Source: an uncultured Ectothiorhodospiraceae bacterium
GTDB taxonomy: Bacteria > Pseudomonadota > Gammaproteobacteria > UBA9214
Reading direction: 5' to 3'
Assembly: GCA_947258515.1 (NCBI GenBank)
Contig: CAMYIO010000033.1
Coordinates: forward strand, 609 to 64,608
Length of the DNA stretch: 64,000 nucleotides
Of this stretch, positions 22,303 to 63,231 are shown in pieces (position 1 is the stretch's first letter; every line of letters starts with the position of its first letter). A program made the position numbers and the translations under genes. Below the pieces are notes generated by a model. That model saw nothing but the letters and a program-made list of their open reading frames with translations. It was not told the origin of the DNA and searched no databases.

Positions 22303-22375
22303 GTAGGAGCGCCGTCCCCGGCGCGATTGTTCTTTGTCTTGCCCCCGAATCGCGGCGAGGACGCCGCTCCTACAA
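22303..22375. repeat. REP-like palindromic element (type A, copy 1)
   Basis: tgtaggagcgccgtccccggcgcgattg -spacer- aatcgcggcgaggacgccgctcctaca, an imperfect inverted repeat. Near-identical copies lie at 34870, 41423 and 62526. Confidence 0.6.
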
Positions 22376-22407
22376 TATAATTATTACAATAGCTTACGTT
22401 ATATTCC

Positions 22408-23521
22408 TCAGAACCATATTGAAACGAAAAGCTGCGCCACGTCGGCACCGAATTTGTACAGCGGTTCATCTCCCGCCGGTGCGCCGCTGTCGCGCAGATC
22501 GCGAAAATCATGGTAGTTGAACCAGATGTGATCATAGGACAGGTTAATACTGCCACGGTCTATCCAGCGCCAGCCATTCTGTACGAAATCATAACTCAAC
22601 GAAAACCCGAGCGTGTTGCTGTCAAAAGAGCTGAGTTCCTTGTCGCGCGCGAGAAAGTTCTGTGCATCCCTGCGCGGGAACAGGTCACTGTAAAAGTCGG
22701 CTGAATTCTGCGTGTAATAGCGGTAGTGAGCTTCAAATAACCAGCCACCGCTCAGCGGGTGTATGTAGGCAAGCTTGACGTTATGCGCCCGGATTCCCCA
22801 GGTGTCATCAAAGATCCGGTACTCTGCATAGGTTGATGCACGATAAGGTAAATAATAAAGTCCGCGCACGGCAACTGCGTTGCTGGTGCGTGTATTCGGG
22901 TAGACCTCCGGCTGATAACTGTAACCCGGAGAACTCGCAGTATCGATGTAACGCACCGAACGGTAGGGATTATTCAAATATGCTGATCACCTGCGTGAGC
23001 CCGACTGTATAATTCTGCCGGTCCACATCTTCGGAGAAGGCAGGGTCGTTATTGTTGCCAACGACATCCCAGCCACGTGCATATCCCAGTGTCACGGTGG
23101 TCATGTTGCCAAACATGTCCATGCTGATACCAAAACTGGCGGTATTGGCCGAGTAATCACTCTCCTCACTGTTGGTATAGGAGACACTCATAATCGAATT
23201 GCCATGCAGGTAGTCTGCACCCAGCGAGTATTCAGTTCGCTCTTCCGTGTAGGGACTGGCCGTGGTGACGACATCAATGGATGCGCTGCTGATGGAATCC
23301 ACGTAGTAGTTACCGCTGAGCGCAAAATTCTGCCCGACGTTTTTCAGAACCAGCACCGATGGCCCGGTGATCTCGACCCCGCCGCCATCATAGGAGTGAT
23401 ACAGCGCATCGGCACGGTCATCCGGCAACACGCCGGCCACGGTCGGCAAGCCGCTGCACAGCAGGCACAGACCCGCGAGACAGGTTTTGCGGATACTAGT
23501 TACAGCCACAGCCCCCACCAT
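22408..23521 (-). pseudogene. DUF3570-like outer-membrane protein, split by a frameshift near 22970
   Basis: Two abutting 189-aa ORFs. The N-terminal half carries the signal peptide (LAGLCLLCSGLPTVAG). The C-terminal half ends ...FVSIWF, the terminal-Phe signature of outer-membrane barrels. Together they make ~378 aa, typical of DUF3570. It sits next to the DUF4266/TlpA partners. Confidence 0.5.
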
Positions 23522-23732
23522 TACCACCTTCAGCACCACGCGCCGCCTCGCGTGCCTGGTAGACGTGAATCATGTAGGAGGATGACACCGGGTTGCGTTC
23601 GAAACGCATGATTTCATCCGCAAGGTATTCACGCTCATAGGGCTTTACCCAGGGTTCGACCATACTGCAAGCCGGCAGGTACAACACACCCAGAACGAGA
23701 ATAACTGCTTTGCGGATAGTCACTGCCGTCAT
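23496..23732 (-). CDS. DUF4266-like small lipoprotein
   Basis: 78 aa, lipobox LPAC, C-terminal Gly-rich ...GGNGGGCGCN tail. Conserved neighbour of DUF3570 and TlpA genes. Confidence 0.55.
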   Translation of the reverse strand: MTAVTIRKAVILVLGVLYLPACSMVEPWVKPYEREYLADEIMRFERNPVSSSYMIHVYQAREAARGAEGGNGGGCGCN

Positions 23733-24241
23733 TCCCTGATCAGGTCACGAACCTGTTGCTGGTAGACAGTCTCAAGTCCGGGTTTATAGCCCTTGTGCAG
23801 GTAGCGCATATTGCCATCGCGATCCACCAGCACGGTGCTGGGCATGGCAACCACGTCATATTGCTTGCTGACGACGCTGTCGCTGTCAAATACCACGGGA
23901 AAACTCACCGGCAGTTCCTCCAGCAGTTTTTTCGCCTTGCTCGAATCAGCCTCGACGTTGACACCCAGCACGGTGAATCCCAGTGCACGGTACTTGTCAT
24001 GCAGTTCGCTGAGTACCGGCATCTCCTGGCGGCAGGGGCCGCACCACGAGGCCCAGAAATTGATCAGCACAACCTCGCCGCGGTATTCACTGAGCCTGAG
24101 ATTTTCACCCGTGTTGCTCTTCAGCGTAAAGTCCGGTGCACCCGACTGCTTCATGCCGGCATATACAGCGGATGTCGCCATGATCACCGCAGCGGCCATG
24201 CCGAGCCATGATTTCATGTAATGTGCTAACTTGTTTTCCAT
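23729..24241 (-). CDS. TlpA-family periplasmic thiol:disulfide oxidoreductase
   Basis: Signal peptide and thioredoxin fold with WASWCGPC active site. Stop/start overlap with the downstream lipoprotein gene. Confidence 0.8.
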   Translation of the reverse strand: MENKLAHYMKSWLGMAAAVIMATSAVYAGMKQSGAPDFTLKSNTGENLRLSEYRGEVVLINFWASWCGPCRQEMPVLSELHDKYRALGFTVLGVNVEADSSKAKKLLEELPVSFPVVFDSDSVVSKQYDVVAMPSTVLVDRDGNMRYLHKGYKPGLETVYQQQVRDLIRE

Positions 24242-24253
24242 AATCGACTCCTG

Positions 24254-24922
24254 TTAAAAGAAGAAACTGATACCGGCGGTACCTTCCAGGTTATGTGTTG
24301 TTTTATCCTTTCCGAGCAGGTCGGATTTGAAAATGTGGTCGCGGAAGTCTAGATGCAGCGCAACCCAGTCATTCACCAGGAACCGGTAGCCGGCGCCGAC
24401 GTTGACAGTGAAATGGCTGTCATCCGCAAACTCTGTATTTCCAACGCCGGCGATCAGGTACAGGGCACTGTTAAAGGCGTGACCCTTGCCGATAAATGCC
24501 TCACCCGGCAGGATGTTGTACCCCAGCGAGAGATTGTAGTAAGTCAGTTTCCGCTGACTGTCCGTCAGCACCCGGGCACCACCACTGAGCGTCTCGTAAC
24601 TGGTGTCGCCTGCCTTTGTCCGGCCGATAGCGGCCTCGGTAAAGAAGTCCTCGGTAATGTGGTAGGCGCCGCGCGCTCCATAGACCACGTTAGTGCCGAA
24701 GTCCTCGATACTCATGACACCGACAAAAGCACCGACCTCGAAGTCCTCACTGTCGATATCAGCTTCGGAAACCGTGCGTCTTTCAAGGTCCGGGCTTATC
24801 ACCGGCGTCGTGTCATCCTGTGGTGCATCATCAACCCGCACCCAGGAGCAACCCGGCAGCAGGCTCATGAAGGCCAGTGCAAGCATTGACCTCAGAAGAA
24901 AAATGCGAAACCTGCTTTCCAT
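24254..24922 (-). CDS. outer-membrane beta-barrel lipoprotein (OmpA/OmpW-like barrel)
   Basis: Lipobox LLPGCSW, amphipathic beta strands, C-terminal ...GISFFF. Confidence 0.6.
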   Translation of the reverse strand: MESRFRIFLLRSMLALAFMSLLPGCSWVRVDDAPQDDTTPVISPDLERRTVSEADIDSEDFEVGAFVGVMSIEDFGTNVVYGARGAYHITEDFFTEAAIGRTKAGDTSYETLSGGARVLTDSQRKLTYYNLSLGYNILPGEAFIGKGHAFNSALYLIAGVGNTEFADDSHFTVNVGAGYRFLVNDWVALHLDFRDHIFKSDLLGKDKTTHNLEGTAGISFFF

Positions 24923-25665
24923 TCGTTTATCTCCTGGTTGTCGTCCTTATCCTGAAAAATGACGCTGTTCCTGTATTCGGCACGCAGCAAGAATCGACGC
25001 GTCAGATAGCAGCGGATACCCACGCCGACACTGCCGATCTGCTCGGTACGATCCAGCTCATCGACCAGCGTAACGTTCGGGTCGGTATAGATAATCCCTG
25101 TCCCCAGAGAAAAGAAAGGCGACAGACGCCACTCCGGAAACGGATGCGCGAGCAGACTGACGCGACCAACAACCGAATCCGAATAATTCCCGAACACCTG
25201 TGATACAGACAATTCTGCAGAGAAATTCGCCGTCATGGCATATCCTGCATAAGCCGTGATCATATCCGCACCTTCAAAGTCTCCGGCCAGCACCCCGGCT
25301 TCCCAGCGTCTTTTCGAGAAATCCCCGATATTTGCCTCCGCGAAGCGGGTCTGGTCACCCGCGGGGGTTAACGTCTGTTCCATTTCCGCACGCCTGACCC
25401 AGCCTTCCTTGCCTTTCCCGGTACGTACCCTGAACCAGTCGGTACGCCGCTTCAGTACGCTAATGGTCTCGCCACGATCAACCACGTGGAATACCGGGTA
25501 ACCGCGGCCGGGGCCGGTATGCATTTCCAGGTATGGCGCAGCAACAACAACCTCGACCAGTTGTTCTTCAGAAAATGCCTGTCTGGCCAGCAGGGCCTGC
25601 AACAGCAGTACAATCACGAGCACGCGTAACTGCGAAAATCCCCGGGCAACAGTGCACGCGTGCAT
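24892..25665 (-). CDS. SH3-domain + outer-membrane beta-barrel protein
   Basis: Signal peptide, a bacterial SH3-like segment (YPVFHVVDRGETISVLKRRTDWFRVRTGKGKEGWV), then a barrel ending ...GFAFFF. Confidence 0.55.
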   Translation of the reverse strand: MHACTVARGFSQLRVLVIVLLLQALLARQAFSEEQLVEVVVAAPYLEMHTGPGRGYPVFHVVDRGETISVLKRRTDWFRVRTGKGKEGWVRRAEMEQTLTPAGDQTRFAEANIGDFSKRRWEAGVLAGDFEGADMITAYAGYAMTANFSAELSVSQVFGNYSDSVVGRVSLLAHPFPEWRLSPFFSLGTGIIYTDPNVTLVDELDRTEQIGSVGVGIRCYLTRRFLLRAEYRNSVIFQDKDDNQEINEWKAGFAFFF

Positions 25666-25675
25666 ACAGTCGCTA

Positions 25676-28252
25676 TCAGTTACCGGGTACTGCGAATGGA
25701 TCGTTGTAATACTGCGCACCGATATCCAGCCATTCCGAGACAAGTCTCAGTTCGGCTGCATCAAGACGATTCTCGTGACTGCCTCCACTGTTGAACAGAT
25801 CAAAAAAACGCCAGCTTGCACGTGCACCGGCGCTCGACATGGCAGGCGCAACCGGTACACGCACCTCGGTCGGCAATCCCGTCTCGGGATCGATCGGACC
25901 GGGTACCAGGATGTCCTGCAGGCCGTTATCACCGAGTTCCTCGGCGAAGTCAGCGAACAGTAGCTCCCGATAGGAGTGGAAATGCGCGGCCTGTTCTGCG
26001 GACACACCATCGGTCAGATCGAGCTGTGCATCCGGTACCCTGTCCATGTCGGCTGCATCGAGGCTGGCATGGCATTCTGTGCAGGTGTTTACGCCACGGT
26101 CACGATTCCACAGGGGGTGTATATGCTGCTCATAATTGATCACTGTCCTGCATTGACTGTCCCAGTCCCCCTGGCAGACGGATGAGGCCGGTGCAGCGGT
26201 TGACAGGTCCGCATACAGCAGGCTGGTTGACGCATCCTTGAGGCGAGCGGCAGCCATTTCGTCGGTCCAGAGGTCGTGATATATCAGGTCAGTCGAGGGT
26301 TGCAGGGAGAGGACATCAAACCGCGCCAGGGTTTCCGCCATGGTTTCTCCGTATATCGCGGGCAAGGCAGGGTCTGTATTCGGGAATTCCATAGCGGTTG
26401 CCGGGGCACCGGCATGCACAGACTGCGCCCCCTGCGGGTGACCGTGGGGGCTGCCACCGGCATGATTATGGCAACCGTTACAGTGGACTGTTTCCCCGGC
26501 ACGCACTTGCAACCAGTTCTGGTGACGGTCGCCGATGCGCCGTCCGTCCCTGTCCACCACGCTGATGGCCAGTGGCACATCGGCCGGTACCTTGACCCGC
26601 ACGGACCCGTCCGGCTGTACCGGTGTGTAGCCGATGATCTCGCGCATCAGTTGCTGGCTACTGCGTCCAAAGGCAGTAAACGGCAGTGTGGCCACGTCGT
26701 TGTCTGGCATGGCGACGGCCTTGACGATGCGCAGGAAACGGGCAGGGCGATCAGCGGCCAGGGACTCTTTCGGGTCGGCGAGCGTGGCGATATCCGGTGC
26801 CGCGGTATCCACACCGTCGATGTCATAGACACTGCGGATATTGAGTATGCCGACACCCTCGTCAATCCACTGCAGGTCCAGCTCGATACCGGGCTGCTTG
26901 TCGAAAATGATGGATGGCAGGGCGCGTGGGGCGGTTGCCACCACATTGGTATAGGTAATGCCTTCCTGCGGGACAACCACCGGTAACTGAGTATCGGTAG
27001 ACATGTCATAGAGAAATATTCCGTACAGTGGATCGGCCTCGAGTGCATCAGGACTTTCAATCCGGCCGGCGGTGCAGGGGACAATCACGGTATCCTCCAG
27101 CAAACGGCATTCGCTCCAGCTGACCAGTACACGATCCGTACCATCCAGCAGCGGCCAGGCGCTACGGAAACGGCCACCGGGAGAGACACTGTTGTCTGTA
27201 CGGACATCATTGATCAGCAGAGCGGACTGCGCCGGTCCGGACAGTATCCCCTGGTTGTCCATTGTAGGTTCGGTGTTATCGATATAGTTTTCGATATCCA
27301 GTGAAATCAGCTCGCCGCCACGGTAGGACCCTGTAAATGGCAGCAGCAGGGCGAGCAGCCGGCCATTTTCCAATTCCCGCGGTTGCAGGAAATGCACATC
27401 AGCGTTATTGGTGCCGGTGTCATGGCTATGGGAACCGTACAGAAGCTGCAAGCCGGTCCCGTCCGGATACATCTTGTAGAGGCTTATGGCATTACGACTA
27501 CCCATGTCATCCCAGCGGCTGAAAACCACTTCTCCGGAAGAAAGCACCATCGGATCAAGATCGTGGCTCTGGTTAAACGAGACCTGCCTGATATCACTAC
27601 CGTCTGCATTCATGACATGTAACACCATGGCATGTTCGTTGAGGTTTTCATCCAGCGCGGTAAATTGTGGTTTGCCTTCGTCCAGCAGCACGGCACGCGA
27701 TGTTCTTTGACGTGACGAGGAGAATATTATGCGGCCATCCGGCAGGTAGTGTGGCGCCACATCCTGCCCGGCGGCAGCGGTAATGTCCGACGGGATGACG
27801 CGCTGCAGCTCATCGGCCTCAATCAGGTATTCCCAGATATCCCACTTCGGCTGGTCAGCCGGGGCGAGGCCGGGTATCTCGGGCGCACGCATGGCGAAGA
27901 GCAGCCGCTCGCCGTCATAGGACACTTCAACATCCTTCACATCACCCAGGCCACCGGTGAAGGATGCGGTTACATTGCGTTGCCGTGCACCCGGAGAAGC
28001 CAGATCACGGTAAAACAGGTCACCACCGGCATTGAACGTTAATGCCTCGCGAATATCCGGCTGCGTCAACACATTATTCATATCAACGATCAGAGGACGA
28101 CGCACAAAGGCAATACCGAAATCCTCGACCAGTGGATCAGGGTCCTGACCATCACCCCCGCCACATGCCTGCAATGCAACAGACAACACGCAGGCAACGC
28201 ACATGGCTGCAATCTTCCTGACGCCCTGAAAACACGCGTTGATTAGAGTCAT
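25676..28252 (-). CDS. lipoprotein with PD40/TolB-like beta-propeller repeats and two c-type heme motifs
   Basis: Lipobox LQAC. Propeller-like repeats (DGSDIRQVSF..., LYKMYPDGTGLQ...) plus HCNGCH and CTECH CXXCH motifs. The ORF opens at a TTG (28342), but an internal ATG gives a proper lipoprotein signal. Confidence 0.6.
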   Translation of the reverse strand: MTLINACFQGVRKIAAMCVACVLSVALQACGGGDGQDPDPLVEDFGIAFVRRPLIVDMNNVLTQPDIREALTFNAGGDLFYRDLASPGARQRNVTASFTGGLGDVKDVEVSYDGERLLFAMRAPEIPGLAPADQPKWDIWEYLIEADELQRVIPSDITAAAGQDVAPHYLPDGRIIFSSSRQRTSRAVLLDEGKPQFTALDENLNEHAMVLHVMNADGSDIRQVSFNQSHDLDPMVLSSGEVVFSRWDDMGSRNAISLYKMYPDGTGLQLLYGSHSHDTGTNNADVHFLQPRELENGRLLALLLPFTGSYRGGELISLDIENYIDNTEPTMDNQGILSGPAQSALLINDVRTDNSVSPGGRFRSAWPLLDGTDRVLVSWSECRLLEDTVIVPCTAGRIESPDALEADPLYGIFLYDMSTDTQLPVVVPQEGITYTNVVATAPRALPSIIFDKQPGIELDLQWIDEGVGILNIRSVYDIDGVDTAAPDIATLADPKESLAADRPARFLRIVKAVAMPDNDVATLPFTAFGRSSQQLMREIIGYTPVQPDGSVRVKVPADVPLAISVVDRDGRRIGDRHQNWLQVRAGETVHCNGCHNHAGGSPHGHPQGAQSVHAGAPATAMEFPNTDPALPAIYGETMAETLARFDVLSLQPSTDLIYHDLWTDEMAAARLKDASTSLLYADLSTAAPASSVCQGDWDSQCRTVINYEQHIHPLWNRDRGVNTCTECHASLDAADMDRVPDAQLDLTDGVSAEQAAHFHSYRELLFADFAEELGDNGLQDILVPGPIDPETGLPTEVRVPVAPAMSSAGARASWRFFDLFNSGGSHENRLDAAELRLVSEWLDIGAQYYNDPFAVPGN

Positions 28253-29704: not shown

Positions 29705-29707
29705 CCA

Positions 29708-32200: not shown

Positions 32201-32220
32201 AACACTACCGGGAGTATTGC

Positions 32221-34869: not shown

Positions 34870-34939
34870 ATGTAGGAGCGCCGTCCCCGGCGCGATTGTT
34901 TTTTCATGATTCGAATCGCGGCGAGGACGCCGCTCCTAC
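34870..34939. repeat. REP-like palindromic element (type A, copy 2)
   Basis: tgtaggagcgccgtccccggcgcgattg ... aatcgcggcgaggacgccgctcctaca, the same element as at 22303. Confidence 0.6.
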
Positions 34940-35083
34940 AGACGTGTCTTTGTAGCACAGGAACGGACCGCTCCCGCGATCAAGAACTGTGATGCTCCGC
35001 GCATCCTCTTGATGCGAAATTCAGCACACTTGTAACAGGCTGCCAGTCGGCAGTCGCTGCTGTGTTTACGGAGGCCGCATGTC

Positions 35084-35638: not shown

Positions 35639-37515
35639 GCAGCATGCCGGTTTTCACCTGCTCACGGCTGTTGCTGCTGTGTCTGATCGTGATCACACCC
35701 TCACTTGACGCAGCGGATGCACCGCCGTCAGCGGTCAAGGACCTGCAATACGGCGAGGTTCTCTACCATTATTTCCAGCAGGACTACTTCAACAGCATCG
35801 TGCGCCTGCAGATTGCAAGGCAGCAGCAACGCCTGCCAAACCACGCGGCAGAGGCCGAACTGATGCTGGGTGGTCTCGACCTGTCCTATGGCCTCAGGGA
35901 CGAGGCCAACCACATTTTTCAACGCCTGCTCAGCGAGGAGACCAGCGATGTCAGCACGCGCAACCGTGCCTGGTTCTATCTTGCGAAGATCTCCTGGCAG
36001 CGCGGTGATATAAACGCGGCACTGCAGGCCATAGAACGTGTGCAGGGAACGATGACAGCCGCAACCCGCACAGCCACAGTCAACCTGCACAGCCTGCTGT
36101 TGCTGCAACAGGGTAACAACCAGGCGGCCATTAAGCTGTTGCAGGATGCACGCAGCGGCAAACGCTGGTCACCGTTCCTGAACTACAACCTCGGTATTGC
36201 CCTGATCCGGGAACAGCAACAGCAGCTGGGCGCGAAACAACTTGATCATATCGGTGATATCAATGGCCGCAACGAGGAGCTGCGCCTGCTGCGTGACAAG
36301 GCCAACCTGGCACTCGGCTACAGTTACCTGCAAGACGGCAATCCGGAAATGGCCCGCAAGACACTGGAGCGTGTACGTCTCGAAGGCCCGCTGTCGAACA
36401 GGGCATTGCTCGGCACCGGCTGGGCAGATACCGAAAGTGAAAACTATGCAGCGGCACTGGTGCCGTGGCTGGAGTTGAGCAGCCGTGACAGCACCGATCC
36501 GGCGGTACAGGAATCATTGCTGGCCATTCCCTATGCCATGACAAAGATGAACCTGCATGGACGCGCTGTAGAGCATTACAATGATGGCATCAGGCAGTTG
36601 ATCGAGGAACGACAGAAACTGGATCAATCCATCAGCGCCATCCACCAGGGCAGACTGCTGGATCTGCTGCAACAACACAACCTCGGCGCCGGCAACGGCT
36701 GGATGCAACAACTGCACCTCGACTCCGAGGCACCTGCGCTGCGCTACCAGCTCGCACTGATGTCATCGCACGACTTTCAGGAAGCTGTGAAGAATTACCG
36801 TGATCTCCTTGTATTACAAGTTAATCTATCCAGCTGGGAGAGCGCTATCGCCGCCTACGACGATATGCTCGCCGGCCGCCAGGCACGCTTTGAGACACAC
36901 CGCCCCGCAGCACAACAGGTACTGCAGGGCACGCGCCTGCAGCAACTGCAACAGCGCCGTGCCGCACTGGCCGAGAATCTTGCCCGCATCGGCATAATGG
37001 ACGATGCCGCCGCACTGGCGACCCCGGAAGAGGCCCGGCAGTGGCATCAACTGGCAACCATCGCTGAGCGACTGGCGCAGCTACCGGATAATCCCGATAC
37101 CGCGACATTGCACGACAAGCAGCAGCGCCTGCGTGGCCTGCTCATCTGGCAATTTCAGGAAGACTACAAACCACGCCTGTGGCAAGCCAGGAGGCAACTC
37201 GCCGAACTGGACACCCTGCTCAACGAGTCACAGCACGGCATCGACAGCCTGCAGCAGGCCAAAATCGATGCCCCGTCCGGTTTTGGCGATTTCAAACGGC
37301 GTATCGCCGCTAACAAGTCAACCATCGAGAAACTGTCAGCACAGACGGATACCACCCTGCTTGCACAAGGCAAGCAACTGGAGCATCTCGCCATCAATGA
37401 ACTGGAGCGTCAACAACAGCGTGTCGATGCCTATATCATCCAGGCACGTTTCGCGCTTGCGCAAACCTATGACAACGCCCTGCAGCAACCGGCAGTGGAG
37501 GGGAGCGTACAGTGA
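35629..37515 (+). CDS. periplasmic TPR + coiled-coil protein
   Basis: Signal peptide, N-terminal TPRs and a long C-terminal coiled-coil. Overlaps the next gene's start. Confidence 0.6.
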   Translation: MGISSMPVFTCSRLLLLCLIVITPSLDAADAPPSAVKDLQYGEVLYHYFQQDYFNSIVRLQIARQQQRLPNHAAEAELMLGGLDLSYGLRDEANHIFQRLLSEETSDVSTRNRAWFYLAKISWQRGDINAALQAIERVQGTMTAATRTATVNLHSLLLLQQGNNQAAIKLLQDARSGKRWSPFLNYNLGIALIREQQQQLGAKQLDHIGDINGRNEELRLLRDKANLALGYSYLQDGNPEMARKTLERVRLEGPLSNRALLGTGWADTESENYAAALVPWLELSSRDSTDPAVQESLLAIPYAMTKMNLHGRAVEHYNDGIRQLIEERQKLDQSISAIHQGRLLDLLQQHNLGAGNGWMQQLHLDSEAPALRYQLALMSSHDFQEAVKNYRDLLVLQVNLSSWESAIAAYDDMLAGRQARFETHRPAAQQVLQGTRLQQLQQRRAALAENLARIGIMDDAAALATPEEARQWHQLATIAERLAQLPDNPDTATLHDKQQRLRGLLIWQFQEDYKPRLWQARRQLAELDTLLNESQHGIDSLQQAKIDAPSGFGDFKRRIAANKSTIEKLSAQTDTTLLAQGKQLEHLAINELERQQQRVDAYIIQARFALAQTYDNALQQPAVEGSVQ

Positions 37516-38276
37516 AGCCCGTACTGCCTGTCATGGTGATGATGGCCGCCCTGTCAAGCGCCTGCTCAGTGCTGCACGGGGACAATGAGCCTACCATCGC
37601 GAGCCTCGGCAAACGCCCGGTAAAACTCGAGGACACACCGGTGTCAGCCAGTGAAGTGCAGGCGATCTCGGCCTACCGGTCCTTTCTTGACAGCGGTGAT
37701 GAATCGGATTCACGCCCGCACGCGATGCGCCGCATTGCCGACCTGAACCTGGAAAAAGAGGAACTGCCGCAAGCCGGGCAGACTACCCCGGACACCCCGT
37801 CGCTGCAGCCAATAGAGGCGCGCGAATCCATCGAACTGTACCAGAGCGTACTGTCACTCTATCCACAGCGCGCGGACAACGACTCGGTGCTCTATCAACT
37901 CGCACGCGCCTACGAGATGGATGGCCAGCCGCGACAATCGCTCGACACGCTGGCAACCCTCGTACAACACTACCCGCAGAGTCAATATGTGCTGGAAGCA
38001 CAGTTCAGGCGTGGCGAGATCCTGTTCGAGCAACGCGACTACGATAACGCAGAGCAGGCCTACCGCGCCGTGGTCAGCAGTGGCCCGGATAATTCGTTCT
38101 ACCGGCAATCGCTATACAAGAGCGGCTGGTGTTTTTTCAAGCTGTCAGAGCTGGATGAATCACTGGATGCCTTCATGGCACTCCTCGATCTGGAGCTGCA
38201 GGATACCGAAGCGGGTATTGCGCAACTCGATCAGCTGAGCCGTCCGCGGCGCGAACTGGCGCGAACTGGTGGATGA
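37512..38276 (+). CDS. TPR lipoprotein, 5' fragment of a split ~935-aa TPR gene (GltD/AgmU-like)
   Basis: Lipobox LSSACS. The frame ends 8 nt after the tandem 10-bp duplication gcgcgaactg/gcgcgaactg at 38249-38268. Removing one copy fuses it in frame to the next ORF. Confidence 0.6.
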   Translation: MKPVLPVMVMMAALSSACSVLHGDNEPTIASLGKRPVKLEDTPVSASEVQAISAYRSFLDSGDESDSRPHAMRRIADLNLEKEELPQAGQTTPDTPSLQPIEARESIELYQSVLSLYPQRADNDSVLYQLARAYEMDGQPRQSLDTLATLVQHYPQSQYVLEAQFRRGEILFEQRDYDNAEQAYRAVVSSGPDNSFYRQSLYKSGWCFFKLSELDESLDAFMALLDLELQDTEAGIAQLDQLSRPRRELARTGG

Positions 38277-40320
38277 CACCCTGCGCGTGGTCAGTCTGGG
38301 TTTCTCCTATGGGCAGGGTGCCGATGGCGTGTCCGAGTATTTCAAGCGACGCGGCACACGCCATTACGAATACATCATCTACGACAACCTTGGCCTGCTG
38401 TACCTGCAGAAGGAACGTTATAACGACGCCGCACAAACCTTCCAGGCGTTTGTGACACAAAACCCCATACATCGCCTGGCGCCCGGCTTCCAGATGCGCG
38501 TTATCGAGACCTATCAGCAAGGCAACTTCCCGACACTGGTACTGGAAAGCAAGGAGGCACTGGTCGATCAGTACAACCTGCAGAGTGAGTACTGGCAGCA
38601 TTACTCGCCAGAGGACAACCCGCAGGTACTGGATTACCTGAAGCTGGCCATGACTGACCTGTCCCGTCACTACCATGCACTGGCGCAGAAGGACAAGAAG
38701 CCGCAGGACTACCAGCAGGCCGCACACTGGTACCGGCGCTACCTGGGTTCATTCAGGGAGGATGCGGACGCGCCGCAGATGAATTTCCTGCTGGCCGAAC
38801 TGTTATTTGAATCCGGTGACTACCAGCAGGCCGCACTGGAATACGAAATTACCGCCTACGACTACGCCCCTCACGAGAACGCAGCAGCTGCCGGTTATGC
38901 GGCGGTACTCGCCTATGACAAACAGGAAGAGCGCCTGACAGGCAGCGCACAACAGGCGTGGCACCGGCAGTCTATCGAGTATGCCATCCGCTTTGCCAGC
39001 ACCTTCCCCCGGCATCCGCAGGCCATGGCTGTCCTTACCCGCAGCAGCGAACAGCTGCTGGCCAGCGGTGACCAGGAACGGGCAATACAGGTTGCGCAGT
39101 CAGTCATTGCCAGCGAGCAGGCCAGTGCCGTCCAGCAACGGGTTGCCTGGACGGTACAGGCACATGCCTACTTCGAGCAGGGAGATTTCCTGCAGGCTGA
39201 GGCCGCCTACCAGCAGGTACGCCAGCGCATGCCACGGGATAACAAGGAGTATGACAATATAAATGAGCGACTTGCCGCATCTATCTATAAACAGGGAGAA
39301 GCTGCGCAGGCGGCCGGTGAAACCGCCGACGCCGTCGCCCATTTCCGGCGGGTGCGTGAAGCCACACCCACGGCCTCCATCGTGGCCACCGCCGAATTCG
39401 ATGCGGCTGCCGGATTATTGTCACTACAACAATGGTCACAGGCTGCCGCCATGCTGGACCGTTTCCGCAACAGCTACCCGAATGATCCACGCCAGGACGA
39501 GGTAACGCGACGCCTCGCCACGGCTTACCTGGCCGAGGAGCAACCGCTGCAGGCCGCCCGCGAGTTCGAACGCATCGGCACCAGCCATGAGGACCCGACA
39601 TTGCGGCGTGAGGCACTCTGGCAAGCAGCGGAACTGTATACCGCGGCCGGCCAGCCGAACGAGTCCGTCGTGGCATACCAGCGCTACATCCAGCAATTTC
39701 CGCAACCCGTTGAACCAGCCGTCGAGGCACGGCAACGGATCGCTACACATTACGCGGCCAGCAACAACCTGGCGGAACAGCAGCGCTGGTTGAAGGACAT
39801 CATCAGGGCGGACCGGCAGGCGGGCAAGCAACGCAGTGACCGCACCCGCTATCTTGCCGCGCGCGCACAACTGACGCTTGCTGATAATGCCCATGAAAAC
39901 TACCGTCGCGCAAGACTGGTCCTGCCATTGAAGAAAAGCCTCGCTGTCAAGAAGCGCCTGATGCAATCGGCCATGCAGCAATACGAACAGGCCGCCGCTT
40001 ACCAGGTCGCCGAAGTCACCACGGCGGCCACCTTTCAAACGGCGCAGATCTATACGGAACTGGGCGTCGCCTTGCTGCAATCACAGCGACCGGCGAACCT
40101 GAGCGGCGAGCCCCTGGAGCAATACAACATTCTGCTGGAAGAACAGGCCTATCCGTTTGAAGAGCAGGCCATCACGCTGCATGAGACCAATGTGCAACGC
40201 ATCGAGTCCGGTCTGTACAACGCCTGGATCGAAAAAAGCCTGCAACAACTCGCGCAACTGGTGCCGGCCCGGTATGCCAAACTGGAAAGAGGGGCGCCCT
40301 ATGTCACCGCACTTAAATAA
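38269..40320 (+). CDS. TPR protein, 3' fragment of the same split gene
   Basis: Continues the TPR array (RRELVDDTLRVVSLGF... after removing one repeat copy). It has no start codon or Shine-Dalgarno of its own. Confidence 0.6.
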   Translation: MDDTLRVVSLGFSYGQGADGVSEYFKRRGTRHYEYIIYDNLGLLYLQKERYNDAAQTFQAFVTQNPIHRLAPGFQMRVIETYQQGNFPTLVLESKEALVDQYNLQSEYWQHYSPEDNPQVLDYLKLAMTDLSRHYHALAQKDKKPQDYQQAAHWYRRYLGSFREDADAPQMNFLLAELLFESGDYQQAALEYEITAYDYAPHENAAAAGYAAVLAYDKQEERLTGSAQQAWHRQSIEYAIRFASTFPRHPQAMAVLTRSSEQLLASGDQERAIQVAQSVIASEQASAVQQRVAWTVQAHAYFEQGDFLQAEAAYQQVRQRMPRDNKEYDNINERLAASIYKQGEAAQAAGETADAVAHFRRVREATPTASIVATAEFDAAAGLLSLQQWSQAAAMLDRFRNSYPNDPRQDEVTRRLATAYLAEEQPLQAAREFERIGTSHEDPTLRREALWQAAELYTAAGQPNESVVAYQRYIQQFPQPVEPAVEARQRIATHYAASNNLAEQQRWLKDIIRADRQAGKQRSDRTRYLAARAQLTLADNAHENYRRARLVLPLKKSLAVKKRLMQSAMQQYEQAAAYQVAEVTTAATFQTAQIYTELGVALLQSQRPANLSGEPLEQYNILLEEQAYPFEEQAITLHETNVQRIESGLYNAWIEKSLQQLAQLVPARYAKLERGAPYVTALK

Positions 40321-41339: not shown

Positions 41340-41422
41340 ACACATCAGTAATCTTTACCCGGTAGTTTTGAAAATCCCGGACTGAGAGCTGGTTTTGCCA
41401 CTGCTAAGGTTTTGGCTAAATC

Positions 41423-41474
41423 CTGCAGGAGCGCCGTCCCCGGCGCGAATCGCGGCGAGACGCCGCTCCTGCAG
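41423..41474. repeat. REP-like palindromic element (type A, copy 3, no spacer)
   Basis: ctgcaggagcgccgtccccggcgcgaatcgcggcgagacgccgctcctgcag. Confidence 0.55.
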
Positions 41475-41572
41475 TAAGCTTTTATACAATGCCGGATTGT
41501 TCCAACATCGCATACAGCGTGAAAGACGAGCACCACCAGATATATTCTAGACACGATAAACAGGAGCAGCCT

Positions 41573-51996: not shown

Positions 51997-52021
51997 CGTA
52001 AAACAGGGTTAATACCAGCAA

Positions 52022-56932: not shown

Positions 56933-58191
56933 TCGACGGCAGCCGCACTCCGTACATCAAGACCCGCGGGAAACCCGGACCGTTTTCAGCTTCCGACCTG
57001 GCCGTTGCGGCCGGGCAACCGCTGCTCGCACGTCAACCCTTCGCGCCCGACGACCTCGATGAGGTCATTCTGGGTTGCGTAATGCCCAGTGAAAACGAGG
57101 CTAACATCGGTCGTGTCGCCGCACTGAGACTCGGCTGCGGTGAGCGGGTGCCTGCCTGGACCGTACAACGCAATTGCGCCTCGGGCATGCAATCCATCGA
57201 CTCGGCGGCACAGAATATCGCCAGCGGGCGGTCCAGCCTGGTACTCGCCGGTGGTGTTGAATCCATGAGTCGCGCACCGATCCTGTATAACGACACCATG
57301 GTGCACTGGTTCGCCGCCATGGCGGCTGCACGCACACTGCCTGAAAAACTCAAAATGCTTGGCCGCCTGCGTCCCGGCCATTTCAAACCGGTGATCGCCC
57401 TGCTCCATGGCCTCACCGATCCTGTCGTTGGACTCTCTATGGGGCAGACGGCAGAAATCCTGGCACACCGTTTTGGCATCAGCCGTGAAATGATGGACAG
57501 CTTTGCGGTACGCAGCCACACACGACTGACGAGCGCGCACGAGAACGGTTATCTCGATGAGATCGAAGCTCTGTATGATACCCGTGGCAATGTTTACGAC
57601 CATGATGACGGGGTTCGCCCGGATTCTTCCATCGAGAAACTGGCGAAGTTGCGCCCGGTATTCGACAAGCCGCTGGGTAACGTCACCGCCGGCAACAGCG
57701 CGCAGATTACCGATGGTGCCGCCTGGGTTATCCTTGCATCGGAGGACAGGGTGTCCCGCCACAACCTGCCGGTACTGGGTCAACTGATTGACAGCCAGTG
57801 GGCCGGCCTGGACCCCGCACAAATGGGACTGGGACCCTGCTATGCCATGGCACCCATCATGCAACGCCACGGACTGGACAGCGCTGATATCGACTTTATA
57901 GAAATCAACGAAGCCTTCGCAGCCCAGGTACGGGCCTGCCTCGCCGCCTGGAAAGACCCGGACTTCTGTCGCGATGAACTGGGCAGGGAGTCAGCCTTTA
58001 CGGCGATCGACGAGGACCGCCTGAATATCGATGGCGGTGCGGTCGCTATCGGTCACCCGGTGGGATCCAGCGGTGCACGCATCGTCTTGCATCTACTAAA
58101 GGTCCTGCAACGTAACAATGCAAAACGCGGCATGGCAAGCATCTGCATTGGCGGCGGCCAGGGTGGCGCTATGTTGATTGAAAGGGCTTGA
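56887..58191 (+). CDS. fadI: acetyl-CoA C-acyltransferase (FadI-type 3-ketoacyl-CoA thiolase)
   Basis: Thiolase catalytic motifs (NCASGMQS, ...GHPVGSSGARIV..., CIGGGQGGAML). ~434 aa like FadI. The true start may be internal, because the ORF overlaps fadE by 46 nt. Confidence 0.85.
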   Translation: MGERQSGWGGRPVYVVDGSRTPYIKTRGKPGPFSASDLAVAAGQPLLARQPFAPDDLDEVILGCVMPSENEANIGRVAALRLGCGERVPAWTVQRNCASGMQSIDSAAQNIASGRSSLVLAGGVESMSRAPILYNDTMVHWFAAMAAARTLPEKLKMLGRLRPGHFKPVIALLHGLTDPVVGLSMGQTAEILAHRFGISREMMDSFAVRSHTRLTSAHENGYLDEIEALYDTRGNVYDHDDGVRPDSSIEKLAKLRPVFDKPLGNVTAGNSAQITDGAAWVILASEDRVSRHNLPVLGQLIDSQWAGLDPAQMGLGPCYAMAPIMQRHGLDSADIDFIEINEAFAAQVRACLAAWKDPDFCRDELGRESAFTAIDEDRLNIDGGAVAIGHPVGSSGARIVLHLLKVLQRNNAKRGMASICIGGGQGGAMLIERA

Positions 58192-58195
58192 AATG

Positions 58196-58340
58196 AGTCG
58201 TGACCATAATGCAGGAGCAGATCGCGCTTGCGAAGCGCTCCTGCAAACGAGTCATGACCATATTGTAGGAGCGGACCGCGTCCGCGAAATATTCTGGACT
58301 GGAACAAATCGCGCTTGCGAAGCGATTCTGCAAACGAAGG
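58196..58340. repeat. REP-like palindromic element cluster (type B) in the fadI-fadJ spacer
   Basis: Three palindromes: gcaggagcagatcgcgcttgcgaagcgctcctgc, tgtaggagcggaccgcgtccgcgaa, and aatcgcgcttgcgaagcgatt. The unit is related to the one at 16481-16590. Confidence 0.5.
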
Positions 58341-58350
58341 GATACCACGA

Positions 58351-60287
58351 ATGACCGAGACTAACGCAACCACACATTTCCATTCAGAAACAGACGACGA
58401 CAATATCGTCTGGCTGCATTTTGACAAGGCGGATGCCGGCACCAATGTGCTTAATGTTGAAGTCCTTGAGCAACTCGATCAGCATCTGCAGCAGATCGCT
58501 GCCCAGGGTCCGCGGGGTCTTGTCATCCTCTCGGACAAGGCAAACGGATTTATCGCCGGGGCCGATATCACGGCCTTTACGCAGCTCAAGACCAGTGACC
58601 AGGCATTGGCTTTCCTGCGCAGCGGGCAGGACGTTTTCAACCGGCTTGAAGCACTGCCCTTCCCCACCGTTGCGTTGATCCACGGCTTTTGCCTGGGCGG
58701 TGGCACCGAACTGTCACTGGCCTGCCGCTATCGCGTCACGCGCGACGATCCGGGAACACGCATGGGCTTGCCGGAAGTGAAACTCGGCATTCATCCCGGC
58801 TGGGGTGGCAGGTTGTCCCCGAACGGCACCTGCGTGCGGCGGCGCGCAAACTGGTACTGGAATCACCGGCACCACATCAACCCGGGTGGCTTGACCGCCT
58901 ATCCAATAATGTTCTCGTCCGCCCGCTGCTTGCACGCGTGTTCGGCCAACAGGTCGCAAAACGAGCGCCCAGAAACCATTACCCGTCACCCTACGCGATG
59001 ATCGATATATGGCGCCAGCACGCCACGGACAAGCAGGGCATGCTCGATGCCGAAGCACAGTCTTTGGCGCAGCTGATTACCGGTGCGACTGCAAAAAACC
59101 TGGTGCGTGTCTTTTTCCTGCAGGAGCAACTCAAGTCGCTTGGCAAGGACAAAAGCTACCAGCCAAAGTATGTGCATGTCATCGGCGCCGGCACCATGGG
59201 TGGTGATATCGCTGCCTGGTGCGCCTTCCGTGGTTTTCATGTCTCCCTGCAGGACCAGACTCCGCAGCGCATTGCCCCGGCGATCAAGCGCGCCCACAGC
59301 CTGTTCAAGCGCAAACTGAAACGGCCTGTCAAGATCACCGAGGCCATGGACCGCCTGATGCCCGACCACAAGGGTATTGGTGTCGAGCGTGCCGATATTA
59401 TAATTGAGGCAATTTTTGAAGATGCGGACGTAAAGCGTTCTTTATACAAGACTATTGAACCCAGAATGAAACCGGATGCCGTGCTTGCGACCAATACCTC
59501 CAGCATCCCGCTGGAAGAACTGTGCACGGCCCTGTCCCGTCCCGAACGACTGGTCGGCCTGCACTTTTTCAACCCGGTCGCGATGATGCAACTGGTGGAA
59601 GTCGTCACAGGTGAGTCCACCTCGGCGGAGGTGGCCGCACACGCCATGACCTTCACCCGGCAGATTGACCGCTTGCCCCTGCCCGTCACCAGTACGCCCG
59701 GCTTCCTCGTTAATCGCATCCTCATGCCCTACCTGATGGAAGCCGTGCTGCTCGAAGCCGAAGGTATCCCTCCGGCCGTTATCGACAAGGCCGCCACGAC
59801 GTTCGGTATGCCCATGGGGCCGGTGCAACTGGCCGACACCGTGGGGCTGGACATCTGCCTGCATGTCGCCGAGATACTTGCCGAACACTTCACTGCTGAA
59901 ATCCCGGACAGCCTCAGGAAACGGGTTGCTGACGGCAACCTTGGACGCAAATCCGGGCGTGGATTTTATAACTACAAGAAGGGTAAACCGGTGAAAACAA
60001 GAACCGGGGCTGGCAACTGGAACATGGAAGAGATCAGCAACCGTCTGATAGACCGCCTGCTGAATGAGTCCGTCAGCTGTTTACGCGAGCACGTGGTGGA
60101 GAATAATGATCTGCTGGATGCCGGCATGATTTTCGGCACCGGCTTTGCACCCTTTCGCGGCGGCCCCATGCAGCACATTGATGCTGTCGGGGCTGAAACC
60201 GTGTACAAACAGTTACAGACTCTGAAGGCATTACGCGGCGAACGTTTTACCCCGGATGATGGTTGGAATATCCTGATGCAATCCTAG
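58351..60287 (+). pseudogene. fadJ: fatty-acid oxidation complex alpha subunit FadJ (enoyl-CoA hydratase + 3-hydroxyacyl-CoA dehydrogenase), internally disrupted
   Basis: The hydratase domain (HGFCLGGGTELSLACRYRV...LGIHPGWGG) is in the 58315 frame. The remainder (RHLRAAARKLVLE... VIGAGTMGGDIA ... dehydrogenase) is in the 58689 frame. About 16 aa (TxRLPRLxG...) are missing at ~58810-58840. Confidence 0.7.
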
Positions 60288-60301
60288 GGAGGGAGTACTG
60301 C

Positions 60302-62110
60302 ATGAGCAATGTGACTACTGACAATATTTCAGCGAGCGACGCCAAAACACTCGCCGGCCTGTTCCGCGAACGCGTTGCACGCACACCGGATGCCATTGCC
60401 TATCGACAATTCAATGCGGCTGAAAAGCAGTGGTACGATTCCAGCTGGGCAGAGATGGCCAGTGAAGTAGCGCGCTGGCAGGCGGCGCTCGCCAATGAAC
60501 ACCTGCAACCGGGCGAACGCGTCGCTATATTACTGCGCAATTGCAAGGAATGGGTCACCTTCGACCAGGCCGCACTCGGTTGTGGGCTGGTCATCGTGCC
60601 GCTCTATATGGATGACCGCCCCGAGAGCATGGCCTACATCCTGAATGACTCAGGATGCAAGGTATTGCTAATACAGGGACAGGAACAATGGGAAGGTCTA
60701 CAGACCGTCCTGCACGAACTTGATACGCTGGTACGCATACTTACCCTTGAAACCGTCAACAACAGCAATGACGATGATCGCGTGCGCTGTGTAGCTGACT
60801 GGTTGCCCGAATCGGCAAGCAGCTTGCGCACCGATGACAGTGATTCAAACGATGTTGCGACCATTGTCTATACCTCCGGTACGACCGGTAGACCGAAAGG
60901 CGTCATGCTGAGCCACTGGAATATCCTGTTTGACACCGACAGTGCCGGCGAAATCTGTCAAATGCTTCCGAGTGATCTGCTACTTTCTTTTTTACCGCTA
61001 TCGCACACCTTTGAGCGAACTGTCGGTTACTACATGCCCATGATGGCCGGTTCAACCATTGCCTATGCTCGTTCAATACCGGAACTGGCTGAAGACCTGC
61101 AAACCATTCGGCCAACGGTGATGATATCCGTGCCACGCATCTATGAGCGTGTCTACAACAAGATCCAGGCAGGCCTTGCCGAGAAGTCACCGATTGCAAC
61201 ACGGCTGTTCAATGCAGCGGTTGAGACCGGGTGGAAACGGTTCCTGCGCCAGCAGGGACGGGGTGGCTGGCATCCAGCCATGCTGCTCTGGCCGCTGCTG
61301 AACAAGCTCGTGGCCGGCAAGATTATGGCGAAGCTGGGTGGAAGGATGCGGCTGGCCGCATCCGGCGGCGCACCCTTGCCGACACCGATCGCGAAAGTAT
61401 TCATAGGTCTCGGTCTCAACCTGGTCCAGGGTTATGGCCTCACCGAGACCAGCCCGATACTGACGGGCAATCCGGTAGATGACAATGACCCGAGCAGTGT
61501 CGGAATACCACTGAAGGGTATTGAGCTGAAGATCGGCGAGAACGATGAGTTACTCGCACGTGGACCGGTCATCATGCTGGGCTACTGGAATAATCAGGAA
61601 GCAACCGCTGCGGTTATCGACAGCGAAGGCTGGTTTCATACCGGTGACAAGGCCCGTATTGACAACAACCATGTCTACATTACCGGACGCATCAAGGAAA
61701 TAATCGTGTTGGCCAACGGTGAAAAGGTGCCTCCGGCCGACATGGAGATGGCCATTGCACTGGACACATTGTTCGAGCAGGTAATGATCATCGGCGAAAA
61801 CCGACCCTTCCTGACTGCCCTGCTGGTACTCAACCCCGAACAATGGAAGCTCATCACTCGTGAGTTGCAACTGGACAGCGATGATTCCGGGGCACTGAGC
61901 TCAGAAGCGTTTGAAAAGCTGGTGTTTGACAAGTTGGCCCGACAGCTTGCCGGCTTTCCGGGCTATGCACGGATTCACGGGATCACCTGCACCCTTGAGC
62001 CCTGGACTATTGATAATGAATTAATCACACCGACACTCAAGCTCAAGCGCAACCGCGTCATGGAACGCTTTGCGGCTGACATCGATCGCATGTACGAGGG
62101 ACACAGCTAG
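60302..62110 (+). CDS. long-chain-fatty-acid--CoA ligase (AMP-binding, FadD-like)
   Basis: AMP-binding motif IVYTSGTTGRPKGVMLSH and GYGLTETS. GGGAGGGAG Shine-Dalgarno before ATG 60302. Confidence 0.8.
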   Translation: MSNVTTDNISASDAKTLAGLFRERVARTPDAIAYRQFNAAEKQWYDSSWAEMASEVARWQAALANEHLQPGERVAILLRNCKEWVTFDQAALGCGLVIVPLYMDDRPESMAYILNDSGCKVLLIQGQEQWEGLQTVLHELDTLVRILTLETVNNSNDDDRVRCVADWLPESASSLRTDDSDSNDVATIVYTSGTTGRPKGVMLSHWNILFDTDSAGEICQMLPSDLLLSFLPLSHTFERTVGYYMPMMAGSTIAYARSIPELAEDLQTIRPTVMISVPRIYERVYNKIQAGLAEKSPIATRLFNAAVETGWKRFLRQQGRGGWHPAMLLWPLLNKLVAGKIMAKLGGRMRLAASGGAPLPTPIAKVFIGLGLNLVQGYGLTETSPILTGNPVDDNDPSSVGIPLKGIELKIGENDELLARGPVIMLGYWNNQEATAAVIDSEGWFHTGDKARIDNNHVYITGRIKEIIVLANGEKVPPADMEMAIALDTLFEQVMIIGENRPFLTALLVLNPEQWKLITRELQLDSDDSGALSSEAFEKLVFDKLARQLAGFPGYARIHGITCTLEPWTIDNELITPTLKLKRNRVMERFAADIDRMYEGHS

Positions 62111-62118
62111 TAGTCGGC

Positions 62119-62517
62119 ATGAGCGACACGCCGGACAATGACGATCTTGCCATCCGGGTCATGGCCATGCCTGCTGATACCAATGCGGCCGGAGACATTT
62201 TCGGTGGCTGGTTAATGTCACAGATGGATATAGCCGGTAGTGTCTTCGCACGCCGGATCGCCCGTGGCCGGGTAGTGACCGTGGCAGTTGATTCCTTTCA
62301 GTTCAAGCAACCGGTATTTGTCGGTGATTTGATCAGCTGCTACGCATCCATCACACGCATTGGAAAAACATCGCTCACAGTACACGTCAAGGCTTTCGCC
62401 GAACGGCAAGGCAAGACACATGAAAATATCCAGGTGACCGAGGCTGACTTGACGTATGTTGCGGTGAATGATCAGCGCAGGCCACGGCAGATTTCGAAAG
62501 GCTGCATCAGCGTTTAA
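62119..62517 (+). CDS. yciA: acyl-CoA thioester hydrolase YciA (hotdog fold)
   Basis: LAMPADTNAAGDIFGGWLMSQMDIAGS...GRVVTV is collinear with E. coli YciA. Confidence 0.8.
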   Translation: MSDTPDNDDLAIRVMAMPADTNAAGDIFGGWLMSQMDIAGSVFARRIARGRVVTVAVDSFQFKQPVFVGDLISCYASITRIGKTSLTVHVKAFAERQGKTHENIQVTEADLTYVAVNDQRRPRQISKGCISV

Positions 62518-63231
62518 TTTATATCTGTAGGAGCGCCGTCCCCGGCGCGATTGAATTTTGATATGCCCCGAATCGCGCCGGGGACCACGGTGAGGCACCG
62601 GGGCCAGGTAGGGCGAATCCGTTTCAACCAGGTAGCGGTCTGACGGCATTCGCGTTGCGATATCCTGCAATTCCCGGGCACTCTTGAAGGTCACGATGCC
62701 GGAAAATGAAATATAAAAATTCATTTCCATAGCACGCTGTGCCATCTCCCAGTCACCTGTAAAGCAATGCATGACGCCACCGACTGCGCTGGCCTGCTCT
62801 TCTTCGAGGATATTCAGGGTGTCGTCCCTGGCATCGCGAGAGTGAATAATCAACGGCTTGCCGGACTCTTTTGCCGCCGCGATATGCCGGCGAAAACGCT
62901 CACGCTGCCAGTCCAGATCACCCTCGCTGCGAAAGTAATCCAGTCCGGTTTCGCCAATGGCGATAACTCCCGGGTGTTTGGCAAGGTCTACCAGTTCATC
63001 GATAGCTGGATCATGCCCCCCCTGTTCATTCGGGTGCAGACCGACCGACGCCGATACCTGATCGTGCTCCTCGGCAATCTTCAGCACCGCCGGATAATCC
63101 TCAAGGTTGATCGACACGCACAGAAAATGACCGATACCCTGCTCTGCTGCCGCAGCGAGTGCAGCGTCCATGCTGCCAGCAAAATGTGACAGGTCGAGTC
63201 TGTCCAGGTGACAATGGGAATCTACAAGCAT
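62218..63231 (-). CDS. tatD: TatD-family hydrolase (YcfH/TatD), 3' end disrupted by the REP element
   Basis: MLVDSHCHLD...GLHP...GETGLDY...HCFTG...ETDSPYLAPVPHRG covers ~216 aa of a normal ~260-aa TatD. The frame then reads through the REP element (PRRDSGHIKIQSRRGRRSY) and ~300 nt antisense to yciA, with no family similarity. Confidence 0.65.
   Translation of the reverse strand: MLVDSHCHLDRLDLSHFAGSMDAALAAAAEQGIGHFLCVSINLEDYPAVLKIAEEHDQVSASVGLHPNEQGGHDPAIDELVDLAKHPGVIAIGETGLDYFRSEGDLDWQRERFRRHIAAAKESGKPLIIHSRDARDDTLNILEEEQASAVGGVMHCFTGDWEMAQRAMEMNFYISFSGIVTFKSARELQDIATRMPSDRYLVETDSPYLAPVPHRGPRRDSGHIKIQSRRGRRSYRYKLNADAAFRNLPWPALIIHRNIRQVSLGHLDIFMCLALPFGESLDVYCERCFSNACDGCVAADQITDKYRLLELKGINCHGHYPATGDPACEDTTGYIHL
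62526..62585. repeat. REP-like palindromic element (type A, copy 4)
   Basis: tgtaggagcgccgtccccggcgcgattg-aattttgatatgcccc-gaatcgcgccggggac. It lies inside the 3' end of the tatD reading frame. Confidence 0.55.

Follow-up and report, generated by a model that had tools for sequence, protein, structure and literature searches.

Background

Repetitive extragenic palindromic (REP) sequences, their inverted doublets (REPINs) and the REP-associated tyrosine transposases (RAYTs) have been described in Pseudomonas and Xanthomonas. The REP classes TGTAGGAGCGGCCTTGCGTCGCGAA of P. putida W619 and TGTAGGAGCGGATTCATCCGCGAT of P. entomophila, as well as GTAGGAGCGCACCTGGGCGCGAC and GTAGGAGCGCGCTCGCGCGCGA of Xanthomonas (PMC2817692), have the same head and tail as the repeats considered below, and this design recurs in many classes of the P. 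fluorescens group (PMC3686654). As for the enzymes, group 3 RAYTs act on perfect palindromes located 2 nt from a GTAG tetranucleotide (PMC8266576).

This work deals with the palindromic repeats in a 64,000-nt stretch of DNA from an uncultured Ectothiorhodospiraceae bacterium (contig CAMYIO010000033.1, positions 609 to 64,608; assembly GCA_947258515.1), hereafter referred to as the window. The initial annotation had listed four type A copies, one of them spacerless (41.4 kb), and two type B clusters, and all six loci were recovered within 1–2 nt. These repeats are a further family of the known class represented by REPs, REPINs and RAYTs of Pseudomonas and Xanthomonas. With a probability of about 90%, they are GTAG-tagged perfect-palindrome REP units and REPINs, i.e., non-autonomous single-stranded DNA elements that are recognised, cut and copied by a RAYT (HUH/Y1) encoded elsewhere in the genome.

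Unit anatomy and stem covariation

About 15 REP units were counted at six extragenic loci of the window, with a REP unit density of 1.9 per 10 kb. Each unit has a 5′ (T)GTAG head followed by GA, a 6-bp perfect stem, a loop of 3–4 nt and a GA(T/A)T tail. The stem invariably opens with GCG and closes with CGC (GCGnnn/nnnCGC), and the unit tail reads CGCGA. Among the 15 recognisable units, 9 carry the GTAG head, and in the others the head has decayed or varied to GCAG (4), ACAG (1) or ATAA (1).

The type A 24-mer GTAGGAGCGCCGTCCCCGGCGCGA has six matches in the window at no more than three mismatches, compared with 0.00 expected from 100 dinucleotide-preserving shuffles. Independently, a repeat finder grouped the four type A copies into family D3 and listed their arm pairs under I1, I3, I13 and I15. 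The relaxed scan of the window yielded 12 well-formed units; a scan with somewhat different criteria gave 13 matches, two of them inside genes and likely due to chance, vs 2.3 expected in its shuffles.

The type A arms are REP units in full, each having a separate 6-bp hairpin; as single-stranded DNA, these units fold with free energies (dG) of −8.8 and −9.1 kcal/mol (z about −3.4). The consensus of the type A core is GCGSCG-TCCY-CGSCGC. In copies 1–3 the left arm carries the allele GCGCCG-TCCC-CGGCGC and the right arm GCGGCG-TCCT-CGCCGC, which differ by a compensated C/G swap and one loop base. Since the arms are two self-folding alleles, the long hairpin of such a doublet has three mismatches and is 89–90% complementary; across all four type A doublets arm complementarity is 89–100%. 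Folded as RNA, these doublets reach −33 to −45 kcal/mol (z −4 to −7), and the RNA hairpins of the repeats in general reach −33 to −58 kcal/mol.

Type B units have the head and tail of type A and other cores, with loops of 3 nt, mostly CGC (GCGGAC/GTCCGC, GCGCTT/AAGCGC and CGCTC/GAGCG). Both type B clusters consist of three units in −,+,− orientation with heterogeneous cores. According to the direct repeats inside them (81 nt, D17, at 16.5 kb and 87 nt, D13, at 58.2 kb), the clusters grew by tandem duplication in the manner of bacterial interspersed mosaic elements (BIMEs). At least two REP populations coexist in the window, namely type A and type B with related cores.

Regarding the hairpin itself, 739 unit copies were collected from the window and related DNA by head and tail alone, with the inner stem left unconstrained. 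The three inner stem positions show more than 30 different triplets among these copies, almost always with a complementary partner. For the 129 distinct 23-nt units, 93.8% of stem cells are paired vs 70.9% in shuffles, and the covariation score is 0.546 vs 0.141, a value reached by none of 500 shuffles; slid controls pair at most 48%. Changes on both sides of the three inner stem pairs occur in 53, 67 and 58 of these units, respectively. Such covariation is characteristic of a single strand that folds and is recognised by shape together with a fixed tag.

RAYT association in related genomes

The type A query GTAGGAGCGSCGTCCYCGSCGCGA, scanned against one genome per species, is present in at least 106 genome stretches. 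The matches listed come mostly from gammaproteobacterial metagenome-assembled genomes (MAGs), with others from Pseudoxanthomonas, Thiobacillus and other taxa. A metagenome scan found the type B unit in at least 120 stretches. When the window was compared with the 106 type A stretches listed by BLAST and tBLASTn, the repeats alone matched, with no orthologous genes, and hence none of these stretches comes from the source genome.

Two of the type A stretches (L019 and L068) encode a Y1 transposase. The first, at L019:644-1111, scores 139 bits against the NCBIfam model NF047646 (REP-associated tyrosine transposase; cut-off 80), also matches Pfam Y1_Tnp and has type A units on both sides, while the second scores 148 bits on NF047646. 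L019 belongs to the MAG GCA_942491995.1, whose contig L110 is syntenic with the window at 53–64 kb (~85% nucleotide identity). Among the matches listed, homologues of the L019 RAYT form a large family of ~147-aa proteins named RayT by their sources, and the closest homologues found sit mostly on contigs of ~1 kb. Type A units again flank the RAYT at four loci (L119–L122) fetched from two of these homologues, which brings the RAYT genes flanked by type A units in related DNA to six loci (L019, L068 and L119–L122).

A second RAYT, 46–52% identical to the first, is encoded in L133, one of the type B stretches, where type B and GCGCATCGCATGCGC units flank it. The HxH and Y-x3-NP motifs of E. coli RayT are conserved in every one of these RAYTs, which are 27–34% identical to the E. 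coli protein. The Thiobacillus RAYT is 48% identical to that of L019, yet its REP is almost the same. With the GTAG head, the covarying hairpin, the inverted doublets and the same units flanking RAYTs in related genomes, the earlier proposal of REP-like palindromes of the RAYT-mobilised kind is borne out.

Exact type A 24-mers were also seen on contigs of MAGs labelled Nitrospirota, Verrucomicrobia, Acidobacteria and Thermodesulfobacteriota (L008, L030, L038, L094 and L098), with ~0.03 exact matches expected by chance in the whole collection. These are either mis-binned proteobacterial contigs or the result of horizontal spread of the RAYT/REP system.

Turnover at orthologous sites

Orthologous sites were compared in a conspecific contig (L116, 97.9% nucleotide identity over 15 kb) and two sister species (L117 and L118, 82–83%), all three syntenic with the window at 19.7–42.3 kb. 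Between the genes for EncFtn and DUF3570, the window has a 73-nt type A REPIN and L116 a 67-nt REPIN with the core GCGCATCGCATGCGC at the same position, the two lying in aligned segments of equal length; L117 and L118 retain decayed type A remnants. At the ApbE site the window carries a type A REPIN and a decayed B unit, L116 has a B doublet, and L117 and L118 have nothing; the part common to type A in the window and type B in L116 is the CCGCTCCTACA head alone. Upstream of exbB, the place of the window's doublet is taken by an unrelated palindromic repeat, the same one in L116 and L118, and by a short REP-free spacer in L117. This unrelated family (CCCTCTCC...GGGAGAGGG type) is located at L116:21600-21680 and L118:21680-21860 and is absent from the window.

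Two further sites were compared with L109, L110 and L111 (genomes ~85% identical in DNA). The thiolase-fadB junction spans 160 nt with three units in the window vs 5 nt without any REP in all three relatives. The spacer between the 4HBT thioesterase gene and tatD holds a full type A REPIN in all three, which indicates an old, vertically inherited copy. In general, REP loci of this lineage appear, vanish, decay and are exchanged for other types over short times. The alignment of L116 with the window also contains 71 gaps over 15 kb.

The first two type A copies had been thought to bracket a 12.5-kb redox island. The block between them, together with both flanks, is syntenic in the conspecific and in both sister species and has unremarkable G+C content, while the REPINs there vary between the genomes, being of another type, decayed or absent in the relatives. 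A REP-bounded mobile island was therefore rejected, based on the conserved synteny and flat G+C.

REP loci in the lineage might also be replaced in place, rather than merely gained and lost, although we consider this rather unlikely. A RAYT would then target resident REP hairpins and swap in its own cognate REPIN, and, if true, two RAYT/REP populations would compete for the same landing sites.

Gene context

Neighbouring genes of the six loci were assigned by Pfam scans. Four loci lie between co-directional genes: a 917-aa multihaem/TPR protein and an FG-GAP protein downstream of it (16.5 kb), ApbE and a 184-aa open reading frame (ORF) (34.9 kb), a 92-aa ORF and exbB (41.4 kb), and thiolase and fadB within the fad gene string (58.2 kb). 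The remaining two are convergent, between EncFtn (+) and DUF3570 (−) at 22.3 kb and between the 4HBT thioesterase and tatD at 62.5 kb. Thus, the intergenic or 3′-end placement reported earlier holds for six of six loci, all being extragenic and downstream of a gene, with none in a divergent region; six loci are too few for a test of bias. A downstream placement bias of the same kind has been reported for GTAG REPs (PMC3733652).

The claim that the repeats mark operon borders does not stand, as the 58.2-kb cluster is located inside the co-directional fad string, between thiolase and fadB, a pair separated by 5 nt in three relatives, and four of the six loci are found between co-directional genes. 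Rfam and tRNA scans of the window gave no match.

Proposed mechanism and alternative explanations

The mechanism is taken from established work on RAYTs (PMC8266576, PMC3116915) rather than from evidence in the window. A RAYT, which we infer to be present in the source genome, would bind the folded single-stranded unit and use the GTAG tag, cut nearby and transfer the strand, so that REPIN copies would arise at new extragenic places. The elements settle and persist downstream of genes, and clusters grow by tandem duplication. In related DNA, the two REP populations (A; B with related cores) flank two different RAYT paralogues. Once transcribed, the hairpins probably act as putative 3′-end stabilisers or attenuators, and at two sites the left unit with its T-rich spacer may serve as a putative terminator. 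The observations behind the mobile-element reading are the anatomy of the units, the covarying stem, the extragenic placement, the RAYT genes beside such units in relatives, and the orthologous sites that differ in the presence or type of a repeat.

Several points weigh against it. The RAYT gene, suggested earlier as a search target, was found next to the same units in related genomes, but none was detected in the 64-kb window with E. coli RayT and five related RAYTs as queries. Both the RAYT association and the genome-wide copy number rest on relatives and not on the source genome. According to in vitro data, the GCAG head is barely cleaved by a group 3 RAYT (PMC8266576), and window copies with variant heads (GCAG, ACAG and ATAA) may therefore be immobile; the GCAG-head units at 41.4 and 58.2 kb are probably poor RAYT substrates. 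Finally, terminator-like matches are not enriched in the region (17 vs 14.3 in shuffles), and most copies have no T run.

It is quite improbable that the repeats are instead intrinsic terminators or attenuator hairpins, selected by the host, alike through function and immobile. Each of the six loci does follow a gene, the RNA hairpins have high stability (−33 to −58 kcal/mol), and at two of the six loci (22309 and 34878) the left type A unit with the T-rich spacer GATTGTTCTT or GATTGTTTTT fits the terminator pattern, unlike at the other four. Yet near-identical 24–27-mers occur at unrelated loci as well as in many genomes, RAYT genes are flanked by these repeats, orthologous sites in close relatives are empty or of another type, and one cluster sits inside an operon. 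As a general explanation, the terminator was rejected based on the lack of both enrichment over shuffles and T runs in most copies.

Miniature inverted-repeat transposable elements (MITEs) of a conventional insertion sequence (IS) with a DDE transposase, moved via terminal inverted repeats, would account for doublets that are inverted-repeat elements of 50–73 nt, within the MITE size range. This origin is nevertheless very unlikely: the four type A copies have no consistent target-site duplication (flanks AT/AT, CA/GA, CC/GT and CC/AT), single units and alternating clusters occur beside the doublets, each arm folds into a GTAG-tagged hairpin of its own, and the sole transposase found adjoining these sequences is the HUH/Y1 RAYT, with no IS nearby. 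A role as operators of a common DNA-binding regulator or of a nucleoid protein, as the sole reason for their retention, is just as hard to credit, since the repeats, although palindromic and repeated like the E. coli BIMEs that bind IHF, gyrase and Pol I (PMC2817692), lie after genes and outside promoter regions (with no divergent intergenic region among the six loci), have a variable stem whose compensatory changes fit a folded single strand and not a fixed duplex site, and show high turnover between conspecifics.

Coordinates of the repeats and additional observations

Positions of the individual units and composite elements are given in Table 1.

Table 1: Repeat features of the window and copies of the ~103-nt element in other genomes (units of composite elements under remarks)
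Feature	Position	Strand	Remarks
Type B unit GTAGGAGCGGACCGCATCCGCGA	16483-16505	−	hairpin dG −5.6 kcal/mol; tail abuts TGA stop 16478-16480 of the 917-aa cytochrome/TPR gene
REP unit with other core, GTAGGAACGCTCCGCGAGCGCGA	16523-16545	+	
Type B unit, decayed head (ATAAGAGCG...)	16564-16586	−	81-nt direct repeat of the 16483-16505 unit (D17)
Type A REPIN 1	22302-22374	+	units 22303-22326 (+) and 22350-22373 (−); 19-nt T-rich spacer; RNA fold −44.7 kcal/mol, z −7.0
Type A REPIN 2	34871-34940	+	units 34872-34895 (+) and 34916-34939 (−)
Decayed type B unit ACAGGAACGGACCGCTCCCGCGA	34957-34979	+	adjoins REPIN 2; orthologous by position to an intact L116 B unit
Spacerless type A doublet, GCAG heads	41424-41473	+	units 41425-41448 (+) and 41450-41472 (−, 1-nt deletion)
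~103-nt element (spacerless doublet and conserved asymmetric flanks)	41396-41498	+	
REP unit GCAGGAGCGCTTCGCAAGCGCGA	58222-58244	−	extra inverted head before it at 58210-58219
Type B unit GTAGGAGCGGACCGCGTCCGCGA	58265-58287	+	
Decayed unit GCAGAATCGCTTCGCAAGCGCGA	58309-58331	−	87-nt direct repeat of the 58222-58244 unit (D13)
Thiolase-fadB spacer with second type B cluster	58192-58351	+	160 nt
Type A REPIN 4, truncated	62526-62585	+	full left unit 62527-62550, spacer, 15 nt of right arm (62571-62585)
Other copies of the ~103-nt element	L020:3420-3521, L034:3377-3476, L184:3077-3179, L045:105-205, L066:7792-7889		

The spacerless doublet is the centre of a ~103-nt element, complete copies of which are present among unrelated genes in five other genomes. 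Its flanks (...CACCGCTGGTGAGGTTTTGACACAGTCC / CAGTAAGATTTTTTGCAATGATTGGGT...) are conserved and non-complementary, and in some copies the conservation of the left flank reaches ~30 nt further. The six full-length copies have no neighbouring genes in common and thus are not orthologous loci. No pairing between the flanks was found, just a 4-bp local hairpin, and the covariation term is +0.83; a structured RNA is unsupported, since the flanks do not pair. The ~103-nt element could be a distinct composite mobile unit.

As for the fourth type A copy, the earlier suggestion of recombination breakpoints gained one concrete case, in which the copy at 62526-62585 forms a deletion junction with tatD. 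The tatD remnant at 62584-63231 (−) comprises 216 of 260 codons (orthologues have 260 aa) and is fused to the REPIN at ~62585, from where the open frame continues through the REPIN to 62218. In the resulting 337-aa ORF (62218-63231, −), the TatD match ends at profile position 217 of 253 and the tail is the translation of the REPIN; this 'tatD' ORF is an artefact, a truncated gene read through a REPIN. Compared with L109–L111, the window is short of ~155 nt, which comprise 12 nt at the outer end of the right REP arm, the spacer and the final 44 codons of tatD. L243, a short-read conspecific contig, is 98.9% identical without gaps and normal past the breakpoint (...PHRGKPNQPA), and hence the deletion is specific to the window sequence. 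Among exact-protein look-ups, PilZ alone was matched, on a conspecific contig of 1.2 kb. Its junction reads GGGGA/C/CACGG, with microhomology of at most 1 nt; either a true deletion or an error of assembly may underlie it.

Compared with L109, L110 and L111, fadB (58352-60287) has an apparent 106-nt deletion at 58811, by which part of the enoyl-CoA hydratase domain is lost and the frame is shifted. The window has two overlapping ORFs vs one 686-aa ORF in relatives, with no REP at the 58811 junction. The ribosome-site and start region of fadB (AAACGA...ATGACC) is present in triplicate (58193-58211, 58247-58265 and 58333-58357), one copy ahead of each stretch of the REP cluster, which suggests that the cluster grew by duplicating target sequence along with the unit. 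The 16.5-kb cluster likewise repeats the stop-codon context (TGAATTCGCGG / TGGATTCGCGG).

Among other genes, the ORF at 20393-20782 (−) contains tandem 9- and 24-nt repeats (20400-20680), whose product is a low-complexity protein rich in Gly, Tyr and Pro that matches nothing in Pfam. It has 129 aa in the window and 135, 120 and 123 aa in L116, L117 and L118, respectively. Two genes are broken into a pair of ORFs each in the window, namely that of DUF3570 (22408-23539, −; 392 aa in L116) and that of a 932-aa TPR protein (37512-40320, +); the frameshifts involved may reflect sequencing errors or pseudogenes.

Discussion

The value of the REP/REPIN identity is mainly in annotation, with little beyond it. 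It explains the long intergenic hairpins, warns against ORF calls through them, such as the 337-aa 'tatD', removes the REP-bounded mobile 'redox island' and flags repeats that break assemblies. Two observations bear on how RAYT–REPIN populations persist and compete: near-identical 24-nt REPs accompany RAYTs that are only 48% identical, across gamma- and betaproteobacterial MAGs, and the REP type differs at the same site between conspecifics.

In comparison with REPs of Pseudomonas and Xanthomonas (Nunvar et al. 2010, PMC2817692; Nunvar et al. 2013, PMC3686654), the repeats have in common the 9-nt head (T)GTAGGAGCG and the CGCGA(A/T) tail. Both lineages also have a variable complementary core, RAYT genes flanked by REPs and several REP classes per genome. 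The cores of the window, however, are different (GCGCCGTCCCCGGCGC, GCGGACCGCGTCCGC and others), the host is an uncultured gammaproteobacterium known from metagenome assemblies, and the RAYT of the lineage has 147 aa.

Similarly to the REPINs of P. fluorescens SBW25 (Bertels and Rainey 2011, PMC3116915), inverted REPs and a short spacer form one long hairpin, lie extragenically and are inherited at orthologous sites. Unlike in SBW25, the arms are distinct alleles with three mismatches in three of the four type A copies, and one copy is spacerless.

With regard to E. coli REPs and BIMEs and the group 2 RayT (YafM), the type B clusters show the same alternating orientation and tandem periodicity (81–87 nt), as well as the location downstream of genes and between cistrons. 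The stem of the E. coli REP, in contrast to the units of the window, is bulged and imperfect.

Group 3 REPtrons of Stenotrophomonas maltophilia and Marinomonas MWYL1 (Corneloup et al. 2021, PMC8266576) share with the window a small perfect palindrome and a GTAG placed 2 nt away from its stem, and of the variable parts the loop is conserved best in both (TCCC/TCCT or CGC in the window). The stem has 6 bp in the window vs 8 or 5 bp in the REPtrons. In their design, the units of the window fit the group 3 style.

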